Part shown: piece after piece, positions 9,198 through 63,669 of the stretch
How the letters are laid out: every line of letters starts with the position of its first letter
Position numbering within the stretch: position 1 is the first letter of the stretch
Assembly (NCBI GenBank): GCA_963770835.1
Contig: CAVYRH010000005.1
Span: 224,001-288,000 of the forward strand
DNA: 64,000 bases
Direction of reading: 5' to 3'
From: an uncultured Pseudomonadota bacterium
Lineage (GTDB): Bacteria; Oederibacteriota; Muellerivitia; Muellerivitales; Muellerivitaceae
Notes under the pieces: model-generated
What the model saw: the letters and a program-made list of their open reading frames with translations, nothing else
Told to the model about the DNA's origin: nothing
Database searches by the model: none
Position numbers and translations under genes: made by a program

Positions 9198-9274
<77 letters not shown>

Positions 9275-9289
9275 TATTTTTCAACGGTT

Positions 9290-10405
9290 CTACAACTTCG
9301 CTTCTTGGCTGGTGCCCGCCCGTGTCATATCCGTGTCAAACTGCCGCTCAACCTGCTTCAGCGCGTTCACCCGGTCTTTCCGGTCAATCCGGTTATACCG
9401 TTTGAACATCGCGTAGGTCTTATGGCCCGATATGGACATGATGACCGAATCGCTTACCCCCGCTTTTCTAAGATTCGTAACCGCGCAATGCCTGAGATCG
9501 TGGAACTTGAAATTTCCGATCCCTACCATGCGGCACGCCCTCAAAAAAGCTGTCTTGACGCTCCGGATGCGCTTTCCCCTATGGGTGAAGATATAAGGGC
9601 TTCCCAGGGTCTTAGGCGTCCGTTTCAAGAGGTCTAACAAGCCCTCCGTCAACGGGACTTCCCGTTTCTCCTGGGTCTTGGTGTCCGCGGCTTCCAGGTT
9701 GACCACCTTGTTTTGGAAGTCCACCTGATCCCAACGCAACCCCAAAATTTCCCCTTTCCTCATGCCGGTCCAATAAGCCAATTGGACTATGACACTTAGG
9801 CGGGGGGCGCAATGGGGCAAAAGCGCCTCGTATTCCTCCGGCGTCAAGGTGCGGTCGCGGGATTCTTCCCGGAAAGGCCTTACCCTCTGGATCGGGTTTT
9901 TCTCAACCAAGTCGTTGAGGACCGCCCGATTCACGATTGACTTGAGAGTCCCAAGGTCCCGGTTGAGGGTGCAGTTAGTCAGCACCTTCCCGCTACGGCC
10001 TTGATTCGTGGATTGGTTTCCAGCCTTCCTCCGTTGGGTTAAAAAGCCCTCAACTATGTCCGGCGTTAAGCTCCTCAAAGGCCTGCTACCAAAATAAGCC
10101 TTGAGCCGCTCGACTATCTGAGAATCGTTCTTGTGGCTTTTCCTTCTTGCTTCGGAATAGGCCAGGAACGAATCCGCCGCCTCGTTGAAGGTGACCTCCG
10201 GTTTTTCCACAGCCAGAAACTTTCCTGCCACAATTTCTTGCGTGTGTTGGGCTAGTATCTTCTTGGCCTGGGTTACCGGTATTTCTCCCAATCGGACCCG
10301 CTTGCGTTTCCTCAATCCTCCTTCCTGGATGAAATAATCCAAAAAATACCCTTTTTCATCCTTGCGGAGAAATTGGGGCAATCCATGAACATTAGGTCTA
10401 CTCAT
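9290..10405 (-). CDS. Tyrosine recombinase / site-specific integrase
   Basis: Catalytic R (TGMRKGE), K (KTQ), HxxR (FHDLRH), H (SGHKT), Y (KRYN); basic N-terminal arm-binding-like domain; AGGAGG RBS. Confidence 0.96.
   Translation of the reverse strand: MSRPNVHGLPQFLRKDEKGYFLDYFIQEGGLRKRKRVRLGEIPVTQAKKILAQHTQEIVAGKFLAVEKPEVTFNEAADSFLAYSEARRKSHKNDSQIVERLKAYFGSRPLRSLTPDIVEGFLTQRRKAGNQSTNQGRSGKVLTNCTLNRDLGTLKSIVNRAVLNDLVEKNPIQRVRPFREESRDRTLTPEEYEALLPHCAPRLSVIVQLAYWTGMRKGEILGLRWDQVDFQNKVVNLEAADTKTQEKREVPLTEGLLDLLKRTPKTLGSPYIFTHRGKRIRSVKTAFLRACRMVGIGNFKFHDLRHCAVTNLRKAGVSDSVIMSISGHKTYAMFKRYNRIDRKDRVNALKQVERQFDTDMTRAGTSQEAKL
9322..9342 (+). repeat. Putative arm-type integrase sites GTGTCATATMCGTGTCAAACT
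   Basis: Same 21-mer (tandem GTGTCA, 11 bp apart) at 9322 and 13512 in element 1 and at 17415 and 22136 in element 2. Confidence 0.75.
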
Positions 10406-10983
10406 TTGTCCCTCCTAATGTCCCCAGCAATTTGAATACTACCAGGGACTAAGATTTTTTCAAAAGAACTTTCAACGAGAGTTACGAAAAACTCGAAAAG
10501 TTCAATACCGTACTCGAAGCATTGAAAGCGTGGTTTTTTGCTGTTTGTTTTGATTTTTGTTTGGATGAAAGAAGTAGTCGTAAATATTTCCGCAATATGG
10601 GCGGCATACCGAACCAAGAGGGCAGACCCCACTACCGATTTCCTGGATAAGAACTTGATCCAGGGGGAGTGGGGTCTGCCGTCGCAGGTGAGCAATCCGC
10701 CGCCCATATTGCGGTTTTTTCTTGGAAAAGGATGTGAGTCTGAGTCAAGTTCCGCTTTAACCTGTTTTAAGTTCCGTTTAAAGTCGGTTGAGGTTCTCTT
10801 TGGAGAAGTTTGAAAAATGGATTGGCTGTGGTCGAAGCCTTGGGTGATTTTGCCTTCGGCCTTTTTCCTATTTGAACGTTCTAGCAGGGAAGGGTCACAA
10901 ATTGGCAAGGCGAGATCTTCGGCCCGTCTATCGGCCTTTAAATGCAAAAGCTCAAATTCAAGGTTCTCGATCATGACTAACAT
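10402..10983 (-). CDS. Possible leader ORF coupled to the integrase start (coding status uncertain)
   Basis: 193 aa ORF whose stop overlaps the int ATG; the homologous region in element 2 is split into two ORFs (18805-19071, 18483-18818) and shows no clear third-position bias. Confidence 0.25.
   Translation of the reverse strand: MLVMIENLEFELLHLKADRRAEDLALPICDPSLLERSNRKKAEGKITQGFDHSQSIFQTSPKRTSTDFKRNLKQVKAELDSDSHPFPRKNRNMGGGLLTCDGRPHSPWIKFLSRKSVVGSALLVRYAAHIAEIFTTTSFIQTKIKTNSKKPRFQCFEYGIELFEFFVTLVESSFEKILVPGSIQIAGDIRRDK
10590..10714 (+). ncRNA. Candidate structured RNA (hairpin A), element 1
   Basis: Nested 16-bp, 13-bp and 7-bp inverted repeats; compensatory changes versus the copy at 18671-18795. 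Confidence 0.6.
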
Positions 10984-11050
10984 CCCGTAATGAGATCGAC
11001 TTCTTGAATTATCTTGAGAGCCCGTGATTATCTTTTCAATGTATTTTATT

Positions 11051-11110
11051 TTCGACTGTCACTAACCGCCACTAGCCGTTCTTTACCATGCTTTACCATG
11101 GATTACCGTC
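11051..11110 (+). repeat. Six 10-bp phased repeats (consensus about nyTkACCryn)
   Basis: TTCGACTGTC|ACTAACCGCC|ACTAGCCGTT|CTTTACCATG|CTTTACCATG|GATTACCGTC; related array near attR at 13531-13580. Confidence 0.7.
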
Positions 11111-11313
11111 ACAAGATTTTTTTAGTGTCGAAAGGGGAATCGAGGCGATCAATCGGCGGTTTGGGTGGTTTAAAAACACTCGTGAAATCATTTAAGCAAG
11201 AATTGATAAGGGTTTGGATGATGTTCCATGGAAGTGAAACTTCCGCGCCATGGAAGTGAAATGTCCTACAGTAGGACATGGAAAGCCAATGTTTTTGATT
11301 ATTTTGGGTGGGT

Positions 11314-11404
11314 TTTTCCATTCTCCGATGGCGAACCCCCCTATCTGCGCATCAAGGTTAGATGCGAGAAACGATAGGGGGGTTCGCCCTCTCCGAATGG
11401 AAAA
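11314..11404. other. Long conserved hairpin B, element 1
   Basis: GGCGAACCCCCCTATC/GATAGGGGGGTTCGCC 16-bp stem plus inner CGCATC/GATGCG and outer TTTTCCATTC/GAATGGAAAA; copy at 19399-19494 differs almost only in unpaired positions. Confidence 0.65.
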
Positions 11405-11707
11405 CTCTGATTGCAATCTGTCAAAGGTAACTGATGATGAAACTGATTAAAAATTAAGATGAAGACCAAAAGACAAGCTGTGGTAGGGGTCAGAAGTGCA
11501 GGGGTGGAATGTAAGTGGTAATGAAAATTGGCGGGGTGGTGATAAAAAAAGCGGGTTATAAGTTTAGGGGTGCGAGTCTTTTGGTGGTTGGGTTAACTGG
11601 GTATTGCTTGTTTAAAATGCTGTAGTAAAATCCACCTTAGAAGCCCGGTTTTGGTTTAAGGTCTTGTTTCCGGGTTGAATCGGCTATAATAATTTTTGAG
11701 GTATTAA

Positions 11708-11943
<236 letters not shown>

Positions 11944-11944
<1 letters not shown>

Positions 11945-12297
11945 TGAAGTTCAAAATCGATGAAAACCTTCCCTCTGAAATCAAACGCCTTTTAATTCAA
12001 GCTGGTCATGATGCCCTTACAGTTAAAGACCAAGATTTAACCGGCCAATCCGATGCAAATTTAGCCGTTGTTTGTTTGGGAGAAAGCCGGGTATTCATAA
12101 CTGCCGATCTGGATTTTTCTGATATTCGGGCTTACCCACCGGAGAAGTATCCTGGAATAATGGTTATCCGGTCTGACCGCCAGGACAAACCAACGATGGT
12201 TGAATTGTTTCGTCCCGTGTTGGATTTATTGACAAAAGAACAGATAAACCAGAGGTTGTGGATCATTGAGCAAGATCGGGTAAGAGTACGGGAATAA
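11944..12297 (+). CDS. DUF5615-family PIN-like toxin
   Basis: MKFKIDENLP, HDALTV, SDANL, RVFITADLDF; TGATG coupling to the DUF433 gene. Confidence 0.88.
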
Positions 12298-12314: not shown

Positions 12315-13454
12315 TTGGAGGGTGCATTGTCTTCAATGAGAAGCCACTTGATGTTAAAAAAGTCCTTTTATAATGCCATTCTTTTTTTAATAACTCTTTT
12401 ATGTTGTTCTTTTGGATCATTTTCTCAAGCCCTTCCGACTGATGTTGTTATGGGTAATCCAATCAAAGGTGTTGAACTTGGAAAAATTGATGAAGCTTCA
12501 GGAACTTTTATTTTTCGTTCAAAGAAATACGATGGTTTTGTAGATATTGTTAGAAAAAATATGCCTGATGGTGCTGAATTTGGCGAACCCACAAAACGGG
12601 GCGCAAAAGAAAATCACTTAGGTTGGATACCGATTTATTTGGCGGATTTGGCGGGAAACGGGAAAAAGGAAATTTTTCTAATGGCCCCGGACAAAGAATC
12701 TGGTCAAAGAATGTTAATGGTTTTTGATGAAGATGGAAAATTGCTTGATCAACTTCCTTTTGAGAGTATTTGGCCATCATACATGGATTTCGGGTTGATA
12801 AAAAAAGGCGGGCCTATTTGTTTCGGCCTCCATTGGTGCGCGTTGGCGGCTGGGTCTTGTGAAGCGGAATTTTATGTTTTTTGCAATGAAAAAATAAAAC
12901 CAGCCTTAAAGGGTGGAGATATAAGCGAAGATGGGAATTTTACCACGCCAGAATTTAATGATATTAATTACGATGCCATTAAAAGGGGCGATGCTGGAAA
13001 CCCTACTCCATTTGTCCGGAATTACAAATGGCTTAATCCTAATGTAGAAACTTGGAAACATTTGAAAAAAGGTAAGGAGTATTACCACGCGCAAGATTAC
13101 AGAAATGCTATCCAGGAATATATGGCGGCGACTTCGTGCGATGACAAAAACTATGAGGCGTGGGGTTTGATGGGTTATTCTTATTTACGACAAAAGGGTG
13201 CTGCTTATGCTTATGAAGCGTCGCAAGCCCTACAAACCTCAGTTCGAATTAAACCGGATTATTTAATGGGCCATTACAATTTAGCCATCGCTTATTGGGC
13301 ATGGAATCAACCGATATTGGCTGTCAGAGAGGTTGCGAAAGTCGTTCAATTAGATCCAAAGTATCAAGAAGTCATAAACAAAGATCCACAATTTATCCAA
13401 ATCTTGAAATCGGATGTTTACCAGACTTGGAAGAAAACTAATGTTTTACCTTGA
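12315..13454 (+). CDS. Secreted protein with C-terminal TPR repeats (start uncertain, 12327-12351)
   Basis: Hydrophobic N-terminus, DLAGNGKKE Ca-loop-like motif, TPR motifs (AWGLMGYSY, GHYNLAIAY). Confidence 0.75.
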   Translation: MEGALSSMRSHLMLKKSFYNAILFLITLLCCSFGSFSQALPTDVVMGNPIKGVELGKIDEASGTFIFRSKKYDGFVDIVRKNMPDGAEFGEPTKRGAKENHLGWIPIYLADLAGNGKKEIFLMAPDKESGQRMLMVFDEDGKLLDQLPFESIWPSYMDFGLIKKGGPICFGLHWCALAAGSCEAEFYVFCNEKIKPALKGGDISEDGNFTTPEFNDINYDAIKRGDAGNPTPFVRNYKWLNPNVETWKHLKKGKEYYHAQDYRNAIQEYMAATSCDDKNYEAWGLMGYSYLRQKGAAYAYEASQALQTSVRIKPDYLMGHYNLAIAYWAWNQPILAVREVAKVVQLDPKYQEVINKDPQFIQILKSDVYQTWKKTNVLP

Positions 13455-13697
13455 AGAGCCCAAAATGGGAAGCCACTGCATAAAATGCAATAGGTCGTTC
13501 AATTAAAATCGGTGTCATATACGTGTCAAACTCAGTCATGTTTTACCGTGCTTGACCATCCCTTGCCGCCGTTGACCGCCACTTCAAAAAAAAGCCCTTG
13601 CCCTCGCTGGTTATAAAACCGTTGAAGACAAAGGCCTTTAAAAATCTGCTGGGGACTGTGAAATTTTAAAACTACTCGAAACAACTTATCGAATTAA

Positions 13698-13742
13698 CTT
13701 CTAAGCAGTGGGTCACCGGTTCGACTCCGGTCAGGCGCACCA
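13698..13742 (+). repeat. attR of element 1: displaced 3' half of tRNA-Arg(TCT)
   Basis: CTTCTAAGCAGT identical to 9230-9241, then an intact T arm ACCGG-TTCGACT-CCGGT and CAGGCGC-ACCA. Confidence 0.9.
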
Positions 13743-17290: not shown

Positions 17291-17367
17291 GGGCGAATAG
17301 CTCAGCTGGTTAGAGCACCTGCTTTACACGCAGGGGGTCACAGGTTCAAATCCTGTTTCGCCCACCA
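17291..17367 (+). tRNA. tRNA-Val(TAC); attL of element 2
   Basis: Acceptor GGGCGAA/TTCGCCC, anticodon arm CCTGC-TTTACAC-GCAGG, CCA. Confidence 0.96.
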
Positions 17368-17382
17368 TACTTTTCAACACTT

Positions 17383-18486
17383 CTACGACTTCACCTCTTG
17401 CCCGGAAACGGCCCGTGTCATATCCGTGTCAAACTGCCTCTCGACTTGTTTCAGCGCGTTCACCCGGTCTTGCCGATCAATCCGGTTGTACCGTTTGAAC
17501 ATCGCGTAAGTCTTGTGGCCCGATATGGACATGATGACCGAGTCGTTCACCCCCGCCTTCCTCAAGTTCGTCACCGCGCAATGCCGGAGATCGTGGAACC
17601 TGAAATTCTTGATCCCGGCTTTGCGGACGGCCTTCCAGAAGGCGGTTTTGATATTCTTGATGCGCTGACCCTTGTAGGTGAAAACATAGGGGCTTCCAAG
17701 GGTCCTAGGCGTCCTTTTGAGGAGGTCCAAGAGCCCCTCCGTCAGCGGCACCTCCCGTTTCTCCTGGGTCTTGGTGTCCGCGGCTTCCAGGTTGACGACC
17801 TTGTTTTGGAAGTCCACCTGTTCCCACCGCAGTCCCAAAATCTCCCCCCGCCGCATTCCCGTCCAATAAGCCAATTGGAGAATGGTATTCATGCGTGGGG
17901 AACAATATCCCAAAAGTGCTTGGTATTCCTCCTGCGTCAAGGTGCGATCCCGTGATTCTTCCCGGAAGGCCCGAACCTTCTGAATCAGATTTTTCTCCAA
18001 CAAACCGTTGAAGACCGCCCGGTTCATGATGCATTTGAGAACCCCAAGGTCCCGGTTCAAAGTGCAGTTAGACAGAGGCTTTCCCCCAAAGGCAATGTTG
18101 CCCGCCTTCCGCCGTTGGGTCAAATAACCCTCAACGATGTCCGGCGTCAAGCTTCTCAGAGGCCTATTACCAAAATAGCCCTTAAGCCTGTTCACCATGT
18201 GGATGTCGTTCTCATGGCTTTTCCTTCTTGCCTCGGAATAGGCCAGGAACAAATCTGCCGCCTCGGTGAAGGTAACTTCCATTTTTTCCTCGTCCAGAAA
18301 CTTACCCGCCACGATTTCCCGCGTGTGTTGGGATAAGACTTGCTTGGCCTGGGTCAAAGGAATCAACCCTAACCGCACCCTTTTGCGCTTTCTTATACCT
18401 CCTTCCCGGATGAAGTAATCCAGAAAATACCCTTTGTCGTCCTTGCGGAGAAATTGGGGCAATCCATGAACATTAGGTCTACTCAT
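17383..18486 (-). CDS. Tyrosine recombinase / integrase, close paralog of 9290-10405
   Basis: TGMRRGE, FHDLRH, SGHKT, KRYN; near-identical N- and C-termini to integrase 1. Confidence 0.96.
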   Translation of the reverse strand: MSRPNVHGLPQFLRKDDKGYFLDYFIREGGIRKRKRVRLGLIPLTQAKQVLSQHTREIVAGKFLDEEKMEVTFTEAADLFLAYSEARRKSHENDIHMVNRLKGYFGNRPLRSLTPDIVEGYLTQRRKAGNIAFGGKPLSNCTLNRDLGVLKCIMNRAVFNGLLEKNLIQKVRAFREESRDRTLTQEEYQALLGYCSPRMNTILQLAYWTGMRRGEILGLRWEQVDFQNKVVNLEAADTKTQEKREVPLTEGLLDLLKRTPRTLGSPYVFTYKGQRIKNIKTAFWKAVRKAGIKNFRFHDLRHCAVTNLRKAGVNDSVIMSISGHKTYAMFKRYNRIDRQDRVNALKQVERQFDTDMTRAVSGQEVKS

Positions 18487-18670
18487 TCGTCCCTCCTAAT
18501 GTCCCCAGCAATTTGAATATTAGCAGGGGAAAAGATTTTTGCAAATGAACTACCAAGAAAAGTAAAGCCAAACCTGAAAAGCCCAATCACGTCCCAAAAG
18601 TACCGCAAGCATGGTTTTTGATGTTTGTTTGATTTGTTTGAATGGATTAAAGATGTGGTCGTAATTATTT

Positions 18671-18795
18671 CCGCAATATGGGCGGCATAGTGAACCAAGA
18701 GGCCAGCCCCCACTACCTCTTTCCTGCCATCACAAAGTGATGCAGGGGGAGTGGGGGCTGGCGTCGCAGGTGAGCAAAACACTGCCCATTTGTGG
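18671..18795 (+). ncRNA. Candidate structured RNA (hairpin A), element 2
   Basis: GCCAGCCCCCACT/AGTGGGGGCTGGC stem with compensatory changes; outer stem kept through G-U pairs on the + strand. Confidence 0.6.
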
Positions 18796-19398
18796 AATAT
18801 TTCCTTAATTTTCATCACAACCTGCTTGTGGTTCCGTGTAAAGCAGCTTTACGTTCCGATTTACCCTGGATAAGGTTCCGCTTGAATTTTTCGGGAGCGA
18901 AAAAACAGATGCGGACTGAACCAAGGCATGGGGTATTCCCCAAGGCAACAAGTCTGAATTTGAGCGTTGGGATTTTGAAGAGGGACAAACTGGTTTGGAG
19001 GGATCTTCGGGCCGTCTATCGGCCTTTAAATGCAAAATCTCTGATTCAAGGTTTTCGATCATGTTAGTCATCCTGTAATTAAATCGACTTCTTGAATTAT
19101 CTTGAGAGCACGCGGTTATCTTTTCAACGAATTTTATTTTGCGTTGTCACTGACTGCCACTAGCCGTTCTTTACCATGCTTTACCATTGATTACCGTCAC
19201 AAGAATTTTTTAGTGTCGAAAAGGGCATCGAGGCGGTCAATTAGCGGTTTGGGTGGTTTAAAAACACTCGTGGAATCATTTAAGCGAGAATTGATAAGGG
19301 TTTGGATGATGTTCCATGGAAGTGAAACTTCCGCGCCATGGAAGTGAAATGTCCTACAGTAGGACATGGAAAGCCAATGTTTTTGATTATTTTGGGTG

Positions 19399-19494
19399 GG
19401 TTTTTCCATTCTCCGATGGCGAACCCCCCTATCACCGCATCAAGTACGGATGCGAGAAACGATAGGGGGGTTCGCCCTCTCCGAATGAAAAACC
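19399..19494. other. Long conserved hairpin B, element 2
   Basis: Same 16-bp stem as 11330-11388. Confidence 0.65.
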
Positions 19495-19721: not shown

Positions 19722-20051
19722 ATGGATTTATTTAAGTTCGACAAAATTCTTATCTCGGAGTTTCTTGAAAAGGGCTATTTCGATTGGAGATTGCATGCCT
19801 TAGAAAGGGCGGCGGAACGAAGTATTTCGCAGGATAAAGTGCTGGAGATACTTCGCCAATGGGATGTGCTGGAAAAGGAATATAATCGAAAGCCTTTTCC
19901 AACGGCCTTGGTTATAGGCTGGAATGGACAACAGCCGATTCACGTTGTTGTTGCCATAGATGAAGCCCTGGAATGGGTGTATATTATTACCGTGTATGAA
20001 CCGGACTTGGACCATTTTGAGCCAGGTTTCCGGGCGAGGAAAAAGCCATGA
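19722..20051 (+). CDS. DUF4258-family protein (putative toxin)
   Basis: HALERAAERSI, PFPTALVIG, PIHVVVA, IITVYEPD...F..R; paired with a YgiT-type Zn finger gene. Confidence 0.85.
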   Translation: MDLFKFDKILISEFLEKGYFDWRLHALERAAERSISQDKVLEILRQWDVLEKEYNRKPFPTALVIGWNGQQPIHVVVAIDEALEWVYIITVYEPDLDHFEPGFRARKKP

Positions 20052-20284
20052 CGACAAAAACAGCCGGAAAAATCTGCCCCCTTTGCGGGGGAACCAAAAA
20101 ACCTGGGAAGGCCACTTTCACTGTTGAGACGGGGGAAGGGGTTGTTGTGGTTCGAAATGTTCCAGCCGAAATTTGCGATTTGTGCGGGGAAGAATGGATT
20201 GCCGCCAATGCCGCGAAAGAACTTGAAGCCCATGTTGAAAGCGCCCGCCAAAAACACCTTCAAGTTGAAGTTGTGCCTTTTTGA
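20048..20284 (+). CDS. YgiT-type zinc finger protein (MqsA N-terminal-like, putative antitoxin)
   Basis: CPLCGG...VVVVRNVPAEICDLCGEE. Confidence 0.88.
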   Translation: MTTKTAGKICPLCGGTKKPGKATFTVETGEGVVVVRNVPAEICDLCGEEWIAANAAKELEAHVESARQKHLQVEVVPF

Positions 20285-20323: not shown

Positions 20324-22120
20324 TTGGTTCGGAAATTTCTCCTAATTCCTTTATTTCTTTTTTGGGGGATTCCTTTTCAGGCCGAATCTCAGTCTGGCGA
20401 AGTTGTCAAACCGACTTTAGACCCATTGATATACATAAAATCAAAAGAAGGTGTTTTGCACCAGGATGTCAGGAACATTCGGGATATTGCCTTGGACTTC
20501 GCCGGCAATATTTTCCTCTTGGATTCCTTTCACCTGGGTGTTCAAAAGTTTACCAATGATGGCCATTTTTTAACGAATTGGGGTGCGACGACCGATAAAT
20601 CCAAACGTATAGGTGATAGCCTAGCCATCGACCCAAAAGGAAACCTCTATCTTTTAACGATGAAAGGTGTTGTTTTTAAATACACGAATAAAGGTGTTCC
20701 TCTTCAACAATATGCCCCAAAGGAAATAGAGCCGGGACAGTATGAGGGGACTACTTCCATCCGTTTTTCGAACGGACACTTTTTTATTTTGGACAGGTAT
20801 CATTGTAAGGTCCAGATTTTTGACCAGGATTTCCATTATCTATCCTCCTTTGAACTTCCATCCGAACTCCGTGATTCAGGCCGCATGAAATACTGCCTTT
20901 GCCGCAATATGGCCGTAGACAGCTTGGAGAATATCTACCTGGACAGCAAAGGGGAGATCGATAAGTACGATAAGAACGGGAAACTCCTAAAACGGGTTGG
21001 TTATCCAGGCAACGGGCATGGGGAATTCATGGGGATTAATGGGATAGCTGTTGGTTCGATGGATCGTATTTATGTTATCGACCGGGGCCGAATCCAGGTT
21101 TTTGACGATGATTTAAATTTTTTGATGCAATTCAAACCCCGTGAAATGGTCCAACACCTAGCCATTGATGGCCATGGCTACATTTACACTGCCGGTTTGG
21201 AAGAGAGTGTGGAGAAGTTCGCTAAGTATGACGGCCCCTTCATTCTGAAAAATGCAGAGGAATTTACAAAGTATTCCGATGACCACAATAGCCCGGATTA
21301 TCCACTCCTCGAAGTCGGTCCGGACGGAAAAATCCCGCCGACCTTTTGGAGATACTCTCCTAGGATAGAAAAAGTCACCAGCGAACTTAAAACAGTTAAT
21401 TCAAAAGATGATTTGATCGTATTTGGGAAAAAATATTCCAAATTCAGTGGCCAGGATAGCGACGAAGATACTTCTCCGGACAAGGGTGAATTCTTAAAAA
21501 AGCTCAAAGAGATGGGGTTCATCCCGGAAGCGGGAACCGAGTCCGGTTTCTTCCAGTTCAAAGAAATCCAAAGCCCCCATCTTTACTACTGGTGTTTCAA
21601 CGATTTGGTTTATGGGATTTTCCCCGAAGACCCACATCAAGCGGTGGAAATAACCCGGTTTCCCGGTAAATTTACCGGAGTTTGGCGTATCAACGAAGTT
21701 ATTTCTGCGGAAAAAATGGGGCCAGGCTGTTACCGATTTTCAAAGAGTGAATCAGGGAAATACGAGCCGAGCTCCACCCTAACGATTTCGGACGTGGATT
21801 TGAACCGGAAGAAAATGGATGCTTATTCATCCGAAGGTTATCTGAAAGACCTGGATCATAACGGCAAGAATGAGTGGATTTATTACTTGAGCACCGGGGA
21901 CAAGTTTGAAATTTTCCTTTGGCCCTATGTCTTTTCCTGGGACGGACAATCTTGGGCAAATGTCAGCGCCACTTACCCCATCTTTTATAAGACTGAGGCC
22001 TTTGAAAACCTGAAATCTGTTGAAAAATGTTGCGTCGGCCAATATTACACTGACCCGAAATTGGTTGCCTTGTTGGAACAGGCCGCCTTGGCGGGCGGCC
22101 CCAGCGCGTTTAGTAAATAA
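20324..22120 (+). CDS. Secreted NHL-repeat (beta-propeller) protein
   Basis: Signal peptide, NHL repeats (DIALDFAGNIFLLD, GEFMGINGIAV..DRIYVID), C-terminal DLDHNGKNE motif. Confidence 0.8.
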   Translation: MVRKFLLIPLFLFWGIPFQAESQSGEVVKPTLDPLIYIKSKEGVLHQDVRNIRDIALDFAGNIFLLDSFHLGVQKFTNDGHFLTNWGATTDKSKRIGDSLAIDPKGNLYLLTMKGVVFKYTNKGVPLQQYAPKEIEPGQYEGTTSIRFSNGHFFILDRYHCKVQIFDQDFHYLSSFELPSELRDSGRMKYCLCRNMAVDSLENIYLDSKGEIDKYDKNGKLLKRVGYPGNGHGEFMGINGIAVGSMDRIYVIDRGRIQVFDDDLNFLMQFKPREMVQHLAIDGHGYIYTAGLEESVEKFAKYDGPFILKNAEEFTKYSDDHNSPDYPLLEVGPDGKIPPTFWRYSPRIEKVTSELKTVNSKDDLIVFGKKYSKFSGQDSDEDTSPDKGEFLKKLKEMGFIPEAGTESGFFQFKEIQSPHLYYWCFNDLVYGIFPEDPHQAVEITRFPGKFTGVWRINEVISAEKMGPGCYRFSKSESGKYEPSSTLTISDVDLNRKKMDAYSSEGYLKDLDHNGKNEWIYYLSTGDKFEIFLWPYVFSWDGQSWANVSATYPIFYKTEAFENLKSVEKCCVGQYYTDPKLVALLEQAALAGGPSAFSK

Positions 22121-22332
22121 ACTGGATGTGCAGCCGTGTCATATACGTGTCAAACTCAACCATGCTTTACCGTGCTTGACCATCCCTTACTGCCATTGAC
22201 CGTCACTTGAAAAAAAGGCCCTTGCCCCCGCAGGTCGTAAAACCGTTGAGAACAAAGGCCTTTAAAAATGTGCTGGGGACTGATAAATTTTAATAAACAA
22301 TCTAAAAGAGCTTCCGAATATGGTCCGTGTGA

Positions 22333-22377
22333 TTTACACGCAGGGGGTCACAGGTTCGAATCCTGTTTCGCCCACCA
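22333..22377 (+). repeat. attR of element 2: tRNA-Val 3' half
   Basis: TTTACACGCAGGGGGTCACAGGTTCGAATCCTGTTTCGCCCACCA. Confidence 0.95.
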
Positions 22378-63026: not shown

Positions 63027-63106
63027 TTAACGGAATCTTAATATTGAAATACCGGCCATGACCGGCCTTAAGCGCCGGTGTCTGTTCCAAACTTCCGGCA
63101 TTCCTT
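63027..63106 (+). repeat. 80-bp direct repeat, copy 1 (copy 2 at 63707-63786)
   Basis: Gapless alignment sharing TTAAC.GAATCTT, GAAATACCGGCCAT, CGGCCTT, CTTCCGGCAT.CCTT. Confidence 0.75.
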
Positions 63107-63171
63107 CAGGAAAATACGGGATAATAAGGGAATTCGACGGTAGAAGATTTTTAACCCATAAGGCGGACCCA

Positions 63172-63669
63172 ATGGCCAAGGTTTTAGGTTTGATCTGGTT
63201 GGCTCTTTTTGTTTCCTTGATGGTTTATTTCTATTCATCCATTGACGGTTTACCCGACCGGCTGGCGGTTCATTTTGACGCCGGCGGGAATCCCAACGGG
63301 TTCCAAAGCAAAACCGCGTTTACGGGCACTTTTCCACTGTTTGTGCTGCTGATCAATGGTCTCTTGGCGGTTTTTTGCTGGGCCATCCATAAAATCCCGG
63401 CCCAGTTCATCAATGTCCCCTGGAAAAGCTATTGGCTGTCCACACCCGATAGAATTTCTCAAATGAACGAGAGGATGCCGGCAGCCATGATGTTGGTGGG
63501 GCTTTTCGTCAACGTCGTCTTCTTTTTCGCGGTTCACGCCATCGTGCAGGCCAACAGCAAGGAAGCGGGGATCAACATCCCCATCAACGCCGGCGTGTTG
63601 GGGATTTTTGTGCTTTCCCTTTTTTTATTGGCGGCACTCTTGATGATCTTTAAGCCTCGTGGCGAATAG
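63172..63669 (+). CDS. DUF1648-domain membrane protein
   Basis: LPDRLAVHFDAGGNPNGF motif, INVPWK.YW, four TM segments. Confidence 0.85.
   Translation: MAKVLGLIWLALFVSLMVYFYSSIDGLPDRLAVHFDAGGNPNGFQSKTAFTGTFPLFVLLINGLLAVFCWAIHKIPAQFINVPWKSYWLSTPDRISQMNERMPAAMMLVGLFVNVVFFFAVHAIVQANSKEAGINIPINAGVLGIFVLSLFLLAALLMIFKPRGE

Follow-up and report, generated by a model that had tools for sequence, protein, structure and literature searches.

A covarying nested hairpin on relaxase-less genomic islands of an uncultured bacterium as a candidate MOB_C-type origin of transfer

Two Small Islands Carry a Predicted Origin of Transfer

We analyzed a stretch of 64,000 nucleotides from an uncultured bacterium (hereafter the window) and find that a nested inverted repeat at 10590-10714 is probably, at odds of roughly three to one (0.75), the core of a MOB_C-type origin of transfer (oriT) residing on relaxase-less hitchhiker islands; nicking and transfer are predicted. 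By analogy, the hairpin likely works like the MOB_C oriT of the pAD1 type, in an atypical position and with a predicted nick. Two such islands lie in the window. Both are tRNA-integrated, span 4.5-5 kb and comprise a tyrosine integrase gene (int), some 1.3 kb of non-coding sequence, a likely toxin-antitoxin gene pair and a single cargo gene. Neither contains a relaxase, an MPF or an excisionase gene. Relatives of the integrases come mostly from genomes titled candidate division FCPU426. Judging from its sequence, each island likely keeps two such predicted origins on opposite strands, each with two different palindromes. The features are as follows.

Island 1
9198..9274, + strand: tRNA-Arg(TCT), left junction
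9290..10405, - strand: tyrosine integrase, 371 aa
10402..10983, - strand: 193-codon frame through the palindromes and hairpin A1, its end overlapping the int start; no Pfam match
10590..10714, + strand: type A nested inverted repeat (hairpin A1), predicted oriT core, from stems, fold and family alignment
10616..10620, + strand: 5' side of the conserved internal loop, whose other side is 10681-10686
10669..10679, + strand: region of the predicted nick (3' arm of the 13-bp stem), by homology with the type C repeats and with the nic motif of CloDF13
10733..10749, no strand: palindrome slot 1, W-type, predicted site of the relaxase winged helix-turn-helix (wHTH), centre +67 from the predicted nick
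10755..10771, no strand: palindrome slot 2, V-type, second predicted relaxase site, centre +89 from the predicted nick
11226..11278, no strand: 22-bp-period array beside hairpin B1, palindrome centres 11270 and 11248 plus a partial unit
11314..11404, - strand: type B paralogous inverted repeat (hairpin B1), second predicted oriT, predicted nick near 11337/11336
11711..12297, + strand: DUF433 and DUF5615 (PIN-like) gene pair, likely toxin-antitoxin
12315..13454, + strand: cargo gene, 379 aa, TPR-containing
13695..13742, + strand: tRNA-Arg 3'-half copy, right junction

Island 2
17291..17367, + strand: tRNA-Val(TAC), left junction
17383..18486, - strand: tyrosine integrase, 367 aa, 80% identical to that of island 1
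18483..18818, - strand: frame of 111 codons that crosses hairpin A2, its end overlapping the int start
18671..18795, + strand: type A inverted repeat (hairpin A2), predicted nick 18755/18756
18815..18853, no strand: two palindromes, that centred on 18823 of a type absent beside the relaxases examined, that on 18845 K-type
19314..19366, no strand: 22-bp-period palindrome array beside hairpin B2, centres 19358 and 19336
19402..19492, - strand: type B inverted repeat (hairpin B2)
19722..20284, + strand: DUF4258 and zinc-finger (weakly MqsA-like) gene pair, likely toxin-antitoxin
20324..22120, + strand: cargo gene, 598 aa, NHL/beta-propeller
22330..22377, + strand: tRNA-Val 3'-half copy (96%), right junction

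Complete type A elements carry a HTH_17/MerR-like excisionase candidate (xis) between the hairpin and int. Three excisionase candidates are found elsewhere in the genome and none in the window; by gene content, the window islands have lost the excisionase-like gene. Frames through type A hairpins start over the relaxase stop codon in complete elements and end over the int start in the window. The encoded peptide is poorly conserved, low in complexity and variable in length, without a match in Pfam. We rejected a conserved protein; what is conserved is only the openness of the frame. Ribosomes probably translate across this region before they reach xis and int.

Several further observations concern the islands and their surroundings. 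The tRNA-Arg half at 13695-13742 differs from the intact tRNA 3' half (9227-9274) beyond a 12-nt core and is identical over 46 nt to the tRNA-Arg of a relative (L001). Short direct repeats at 9300-9320, 17415-17435 and 13512-13531, near both island ends, resemble integrase arm-type sites. The segments 13512-13669 and 22136-22293 are 89% identical. Near the end of the window, 63067-63310 on the minus strand gave a weak integrase-like match (E 0.025).

The Hairpin Is a Selected Fold with a Large Family

A first-pass annotation of this DNA, made from the letters alone, had described the repeat as three nested stems that covary with a second copy at 18671-18795. The stems are there (outer 10590-10605/10699-10714, 16 bp and perfect; middle 10621-10633/10668-10680; inner 10642-10648/10658-10664), and so are the compensatory swaps in the second copy. 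Folded as RNA, the plus strand reaches -81.1 kcal/mol in copy 1 (z -9.8) and -79.2 kcal/mol in copy 2 (z -8.4), and 0 of 200 shuffles were as stable in either case. The minus strands reach -79.9 and -69.2 kcal/mol, respectively. Two finer points needed correction. The outer stem of copy 2 indeed contains two G-U pairs on the plus strand, but these are not its only changes, since an end pair is lost and a 1-nt bulge is present as well. Likewise, the strands of the internal loop are invariant between the two window copies, but over the full set of 75 distinct copies conservation is limited to AGAG and R-T-C-G-S-A, while the remainder of the loop varies and pairs. Fold and family alignment together support a selected, covarying single-strand fold with the plus strand favoured in the window. 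The annotation also did not recognise a known family, in agreement with our Rfam scan of the window, where the matches at gathering score were seven tRNAs. A permissive scan of 10400-11600 against Rfam 15, ribozymes included, returned seven sub-threshold matches (E 1.1-8.9) and nothing else. Comparison by eye with the consensus of integron attC sites, IHF sites, T-boxes, SRP RNA and hairpin, pistol and hammerhead ribozymes gave no fit. Two features had escaped the first-pass annotation, namely a paralogous minus-strand hairpin in each island and the palindromes with a 22-bp period beside each hairpin.

A profile built from the two window copies was searched over the genome and 39 integrase loci and gave 30 matches, among them the paralogous type B; a pattern scan of metagenomes added 74 stretches. 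In viral contigs we obtained 0 pattern matches and no relative of the relaxase described below, and the plasmids of PLSDB contained no DNA match to the hairpin and no match to the divergent relaxase. The family has at least 75 distinct copies. The set used here comprises 75 after removal of duplicates (37 type A and 38 type B); copies near contig ends or containing N were left out. Within the host's family the covariance model matches 22 of 30 further genomes; in other families of the phylum it matches 1 of 68 genomes, and that one weakly. On this sequence sample, the hairpin family is nearly confined to one family of FCPU426 bacteria.

Pairing in the family is close to perfect. A core of 17 pairs is 99.9% paired over 70 aligned copies, which are kin and not independent, with a single mismatch; controls in which the arms were slid against each other gave 44-51%. 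Eleven core pairs never vary, six change on both sides, none changes on one side and no G-U pair occurs. With DNA parameters, the strand carrying AGAG folds better in 37/37 type A and 35/38 type B copies; with RNA parameters the figures are 33/37 and 26/38. Isolated mismatches are G-T in 10 cases versus A-C in 3, a weak signal. Two loci deserve a separate mention. L005 (3141-3303) has, where other copies have the internal loop, a sequence perfectly complementary to the 5' arm, which suggests copy-correction between the arms. At L041 a type A hairpin adjoins int and the start of a type B relaxase gene is also present, possibly an intermediate towards two-origin islands.

The Fixed Partner of the Hairpin Is a Relaxase-Like Gene

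The first-pass annotation had placed the hairpin opposite the int leader. The family does not support this tie: the distance to int ranges from about 190 to more than 5000 nt, on either strand (two unanchored matches left out), and side and strand are fixed with respect to a relaxase-like gene. In view of the variable distance and strand we rejected an antisense role on the integrase leader. The fixed partner is a gene of 260-300 aa that ends just beyond the hairpin on the opposite strand. Among 51 relaxase rows, many of which were fetched via the hairpin itself, the hairpin lies downstream and opposite in 45, and 43 of these 45 have it 143-266 nt from the stop codon. The remaining six comprise one row with the hairpin upstream and five that lack a hairpin within 3 kb. 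Of these five, one has a disrupted gene, one lies at a contig end, two belong to a single element on contig C9 of this genome, and one is a divergent type. In the C9 element the hairpin is found 19 kb downstream of the relaxase, again on the opposite strand. When 30 loci were fetched by the relaxase alone, 24 had, within 330 nt, a fold at least as stable as -34 kcal/mol and six had none. Furthermore, all 13 distant hairpin-relaxase pairs on the same contig, read by eye, are downstream and opposite (13/13); one further relaxase on G051:C13 was excluded from this count, as the hairpin of that contig has its own adjacent relaxase.

Structure comparison places a wHTH at residues 16-95 of the partner protein (Z 10.4, rmsd 2.3, 76 aligned residues). 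For its C-terminal domain the top structural matches are all PD-(D/E)xK nucleases, the best with a middling Z of 8.2 (rmsd 4.4, 135 aligned), and the protein has an invariant P-D...E-x-E. The gene is usually found behind a VirD4-type coupling protein gene, which one subgroup (L001-like) lacks. Against the Pfam family Replic_Relax, the partner relaxases stay below the cut-off (2/24 at E<=0.1, best 0.0098). Full-length homologues, of which 47 were scanned out of 79 found, gave 21 matches at E<=0.01, and nine of them pass the cut-off. The relaxase of pTEF1, typed as MOBC, passes as well, with 28.5 bits. A direct profile comparison between the partner family and the pTEF1 relaxase showed no similarity (probability 0.3%), no sequence match to the PDB was significant, and Foldseek returned nothing at E<=0.001. 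The pAD1 relaxase TraX is absent from the fold-match lists, which is uninformative, as the table of PMC12857230, in the excerpt used here, gives no structure id for it. Taken as modelled, the partner of the hairpin is likely a MOB_C-like relaxase and not the integrase. According to an excerpt of PMC5704250, those few mobilisable plasmids that have a VirD4 of their own encode a MobC relaxase.

VirB4-like genes occur on the same contigs as the relaxase, in relatives and in this genome (C12), and the linkage of hairpin and relaxase is also seen in VirB4-bearing elements. The C12 locus (L113, G000:C12:6000-22000) encodes Rep-like, ParA and ParB-like proteins and a coupling protein, with an RNase H-like gene between the coupling protein gene and the relaxase gene. 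It has a type C repeat with a near-perfect 36-bp stem, and the VirB4-like gene lies upstream on the same contig. In another element with VirB4 and VirB6, a second tyrosine recombinase (L177 9654-10970) is located upstream of coupling protein and relaxase; the internal tyrosine recombinase of one VirB4 element could be another relaxase type. Within the C9 element (L114 2664-11879, G000:C9) a 3071-codon gene with NHL/kelch-like and Thr/Pro-rich repeats forms cargo between the relaxase and its distant hairpin. At G000:C19:418856-419647 a type B relaxase gene has its 3' end cut by an unrelated coding sequence, with no hairpin nearby.

A Predicted Nick and Palindromes at a Fixed Offset

Six distinct divergent relaxases that fell outside the query profile have a homologous long repeat (type C) in the same place, and the covariance model aligns these repeats to types A and B. 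The 3' arms of type C read G-G-G/G-T-C-G-G-G (slash, predicted nick), so that the CloDF13 hexamer is exact in 6/6 copies; types A and B depart from it by one to three letters. By this homology, our best guess for the nick point of island 1 is 10673/10674, with the loop edge at 10680/10681 as an alternative. Type C has no conserved internal loop, and the oriT reading does not account for this loop.

Outside the hairpin, a palindrome of 17-19 bp sits at a fixed offset from the predicted nick, 67 bp in type A and 66 bp in type B; in type C a palindrome at 67-68 is present in 3/6 copies. At this offset type A copies have a mean of 5.75 of 7 possible pairs against a background of 1.69 +/- 0.57 (n=36), and type B copies 4.63 of 7 against 1.76 +/- 0.48 (n=38).

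The type of palindrome goes along with the relaxase next to it. In the predicted recognition helix, a single residue (V, K, W or T) agrees with the palindrome class for 30/30 type A relaxases on the tree, 11 of which were added from whole genomes after the pattern was first noticed. Two of 32 relaxases (L139 and L162) are off the tree, having no tree anchor, and both fit; the frameshifted L031 was shortened for the tree, which was built on the nuclease domain. This domain lies between the helix and the palindrome, and K-type relaxases occur at three places on its tree. Counted as independent pairs, the agreement amounts to three for K and three for V (sign test, p 0.25). We regard this helix-palindrome code, read from sequences, as suggestive.

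A second, different palindrome 22 bp further on is found in 14/14 relaxase-less type A copies versus 1/26 relaxase-bearing ones, in varied combinations, a contrast between copies that are not independent, as the relaxase-less ones look like one clade. Relaxase-less type B copies mostly have one palindrome, and two in 3/23. In island 1, W and then V types stand at hairpin A and two types at hairpin B. Relaxases of matching type are encoded elsewhere in this genome: C1 has a W-type relaxase with a coupling protein, the W-type palindrome being present in island 1, and the palindrome of the relaxase element on C9 is the second one at hairpin B of island 1. In a related contig precisely one unit of 22 bp is missing, at 11226.

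Alternative Explanations

The first-pass annotation had listed a single-strand origin, an antisense regulator, a protein-binding RNA and a ribozyme. Its alternative of single-stranded DNA names the right molecule; as a function, however, a transfer origin is a better fit than a single-strand origin, an antisense RNA or a ribozyme. If the oriT were elsewhere, the hairpin on the transferred strand could recruit host RNA polymerase or primase, as a start of second-strand synthesis or for early expression of int. This arrangement has a precedent in sso1 of ICEBs1, which is stem-looped, orientation-specific and immediately downstream of the relaxase gene (PMC4595007, excerpt). It would account for the strand bias under DNA parameters (37/37 A, 35/38 B), on what we infer to be the displaced strand, and close to the apex there is a conserved T-T-G-A-T similar to a -35 box, on a strand that, in type A, is the template strand of int. 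However, a signal read by host enzymes needs neither a palindrome that tracks the relaxase helix nor a CloDF13-like motif, and the hairpins contain no -10-like hexamer at promoter spacing and no sigma-70-like pair in a search that covered promoter-type signals. No other non-coding stretch of island 1 is common to type A elements that bear a coupling protein. One VirB4 element was examined from a point 2.5 kb upstream of the coupling protein gene as far as the contig end, and the hairpin was the sole long close repeat there. The segment 10889-10960, tried as an alternative oriT, was rejected, being shared by elements without a coupling protein upstream of xis and not found in type A elements with one; it is likely an int/xis leader. 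We consider a single-strand origin or promoter unlikely.

A non-coding RNA from the plus strand, be it an antisense regulator, a protein-binding RNA, a ribozyme or a mobilisation RNA like the sgm-sRNA of SGI1, strikes us as slightly less probable again. Strong folding and covariation would suit it, as would the T-run after the outer stem of copy 1, and an RNA role would explain why the purine-rich internal loop, with its G-G and G-A appositions, is conserved; in SGI1 an island-encoded sRNA near oriT is essential (PMC9299015, excerpt). Against this stand 0 one-sided (G-U) changes in 17 core pairs x 70 sequences. Such an absence is unusual for RNA helices. In addition, no sigma-70-like promoter was detected on the plus strand in 10380-11720, L005 and type C have perfect pairs in place of the loop, no ribozyme or sRNA of Rfam matches, and the palindrome at fixed distance outside the fold is left unexplained. 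Least probable to us, and quite improbable as the main function, is control at the level of the mRNA, with the hairpin in a relaxase/xis/int transcript acting as an attenuator through which ribosomes translate. The frame on the relaxase/int strand is open across type A hairpin and palindrome in 42/44 copies (40 in one frame; 0.18 expected from shuffles), and it ends over the int start in both islands. Against this, type B copies lack such a frame (13/44), the int strand folds less well, and selection for an open frame is equally expected if ribosomes merely pass a site that acts as DNA. Such control may still be a secondary role of the hairpin.

A Proposed Route of Transfer

With the hairpin read as an oriT core, transfer might proceed as follows. 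An island would be excised by its own integrase and an excisionase from another element. A dimer of the relaxase of a co-resident element would bind the palindrome 66-67 bp downstream through its winged helix, a single helix residue (V, K, W or T) setting the specificity. The nuclease domain would then nick the plus strand within the 13-bp stem, on its 3' arm and most likely at 10673/10674, and the nicked strand would pass via the coupling protein into the helper's VirB4 channel. In the recipient, leading and trailing ends could re-anneal through the inverted repeat into a perfectly paired, sealable nick. This step is speculative; the two pieces on either side of the predicted nick co-fold at -44.9 kcal/mol. 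Re-annealing of this kind would explain why pairing is conserved without conservation of sequence and why the core has no wobble pairs, and, equally speculatively, such a clasp would show how the strand can be closed by a relaxase that forms no covalent link. With two origins on opposite strands, and two palindromes at each, a single island would be able to exploit several helpers. The full combination, that is a self-closing clasp without covalent relaxase, a one-residue code and combinatorial "skeleton-key" arrays with two opposite-strand origins that hijack helpers, is a tentative proposal that we hold to be rather doubtful as a whole.

Several of the observations above argue against the reading as a MOB_C oriT, among them the relaxases below the Pfam cut-off, the middling Z, the departures of types A and B from the CloDF13 hexamer, the small number of independent helix-palindrome pairs and the six relaxase-selected loci without a fold. 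A further one is position: described MOB_C oriTs lie upstream of the relaxase gene and the hairpin lies downstream of it, which is atypical. The oriT of MOB_C elements is placed before the coupling protein in an excerpt of bioRxiv 10.1101/2024.01.30.577996 and between MPF and relaxase in one of bioRxiv 10.64898/2026.01.13.699239, while the oriT of pAD1 is located between ORF53 and ORF57 (PMC3084688, excerpt).

Significance

MOB_C is among the least understood relaxase families: a covalent intermediate has yet to be observed, and the recruitment of the strand and its re-ligation are stated to be open questions (PMC12857230, excerpt; PMC6736028). The 75 natural variants, with a predicted nick, a perfectly paired stem and a helix-palindrome code, allow cheap and direct tests of specificity and end-joining. 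Screens for oriT that are confined to regions upstream of relaxases would miss such a family, and the case cautions that covarying hairpins in mobile DNA can be mistaken for RNAs. In the literature searched we found neither this hairpin family nor a MOB_C origin placed downstream of its relaxase nor a helix-palindrome code of relaxases described, although subscription papers and bioRxiv supplements could hold cases; no paper found in this search paired FCPU426 with "conjugative". The islands give a first picture of conjugative hitchhiking in an uncultured phylum.

Comparison with Known Systems

The sso1 of ICEBs1 resembles the hairpin in being stem-looped, strand-specific and immediately downstream of the relaxase gene (PMC4595007, excerpt). 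It differs in consisting of three stem-loops read by host enzymes, and the excerpt describes no palindrome matched to the relaxase. A motif search of ICEKp1 returned nothing relevant. In the pWBG749 family, too, a single residue tracks oriT specificity (the F7K switch of SmpO) and non-autonomous elements carry mimics of the site; there the reader is a separate accessory factor (PMC8136818, excerpt), whereas here it would be the winged helix of the relaxase itself.

The closest parallels are with the MOB_C systems of pAD1 and pTEF1. The primary work on pAD1 reportedly considered that the repeat may help to join the ends of the transferred strand. In the oriT2 of these plasmids, short repeats adjoin a nested inverted repeat that is similar in size to the hairpin (142 nt in pTEF1), and their relaxase (TraX, MOB_C) combines a wHTH with a restriction-nuclease-like domain and comes with its own coupling protein. 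TraX of pAD1 has a winged helix at its N-terminus; its binding sites are five direct repeats that lie some 70-120 bp downstream of nic, and no covalent intermediate was seen (PMC12857230, excerpt). The palindromes found here, which are predicted sites, lie at +67 and +89 from the predicted nick, compared with about 70-120 bp for the pAD1 binding repeats. The transfer region of pTEF1 is homologous to that of pAD1 (PMC3084688, excerpt). In pTEF1 the 12-bp repeats begin 68 nt after T-G/G-T-C-A-G-G in the 3' arm of the 142-nt nested repeat; going by the distance in the review, this motif would correspond to the nick position of pAD1. Sequence similarity is absent, however, and the covariance model scores neither the pTEF1 nor the CloDF13 record at E<=1, so that the likeness to both is one of architecture and a short motif only. 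Moreover, the origin here is downstream of the relaxase gene, while that of pAD1 is between coupling protein and relaxase; the binding sites are palindromes at a 22-bp period in place of five 12-bp direct repeats; and types A and B have a conserved internal loop. The nic site of CloDF13 (MobB/MobC, MOB_C) is GGGTG/GTCGGG (PMC5935869, excerpt, citing Nunez and de la Cruz 2001). Type C arms match the 3' hexamer and the preceding G of this motif, and in both cases the nicked strand, here by prediction, is antisense to the mobilisation genes. The CloDF13 site differs in being upstream of its mob genes.

As elements, the islands are most readily compared with iOriTs, which are att-delimited, bear an integrase and have an oriT but neither relaxase nor MPF, the smallest being just over 4 kb (bioRxiv 10.64898/2026.01.13.699239, excerpt). 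Similarly, the hairpin and palindrome types of the window recur beside relaxases on C1 and C9 and on VirB4 elements of relatives, with the oriT deduced from this recurrence. According to the same excerpt, iOriTs come from six nosocomial species and from regions upstream of relaxases, whereas the hairpins described here lie downstream of theirs, in an uncultured phylum, and the window islands differ further from the iOriTs of that excerpt in having two divergent predicted origins on opposite strands, both with two-key arrays.
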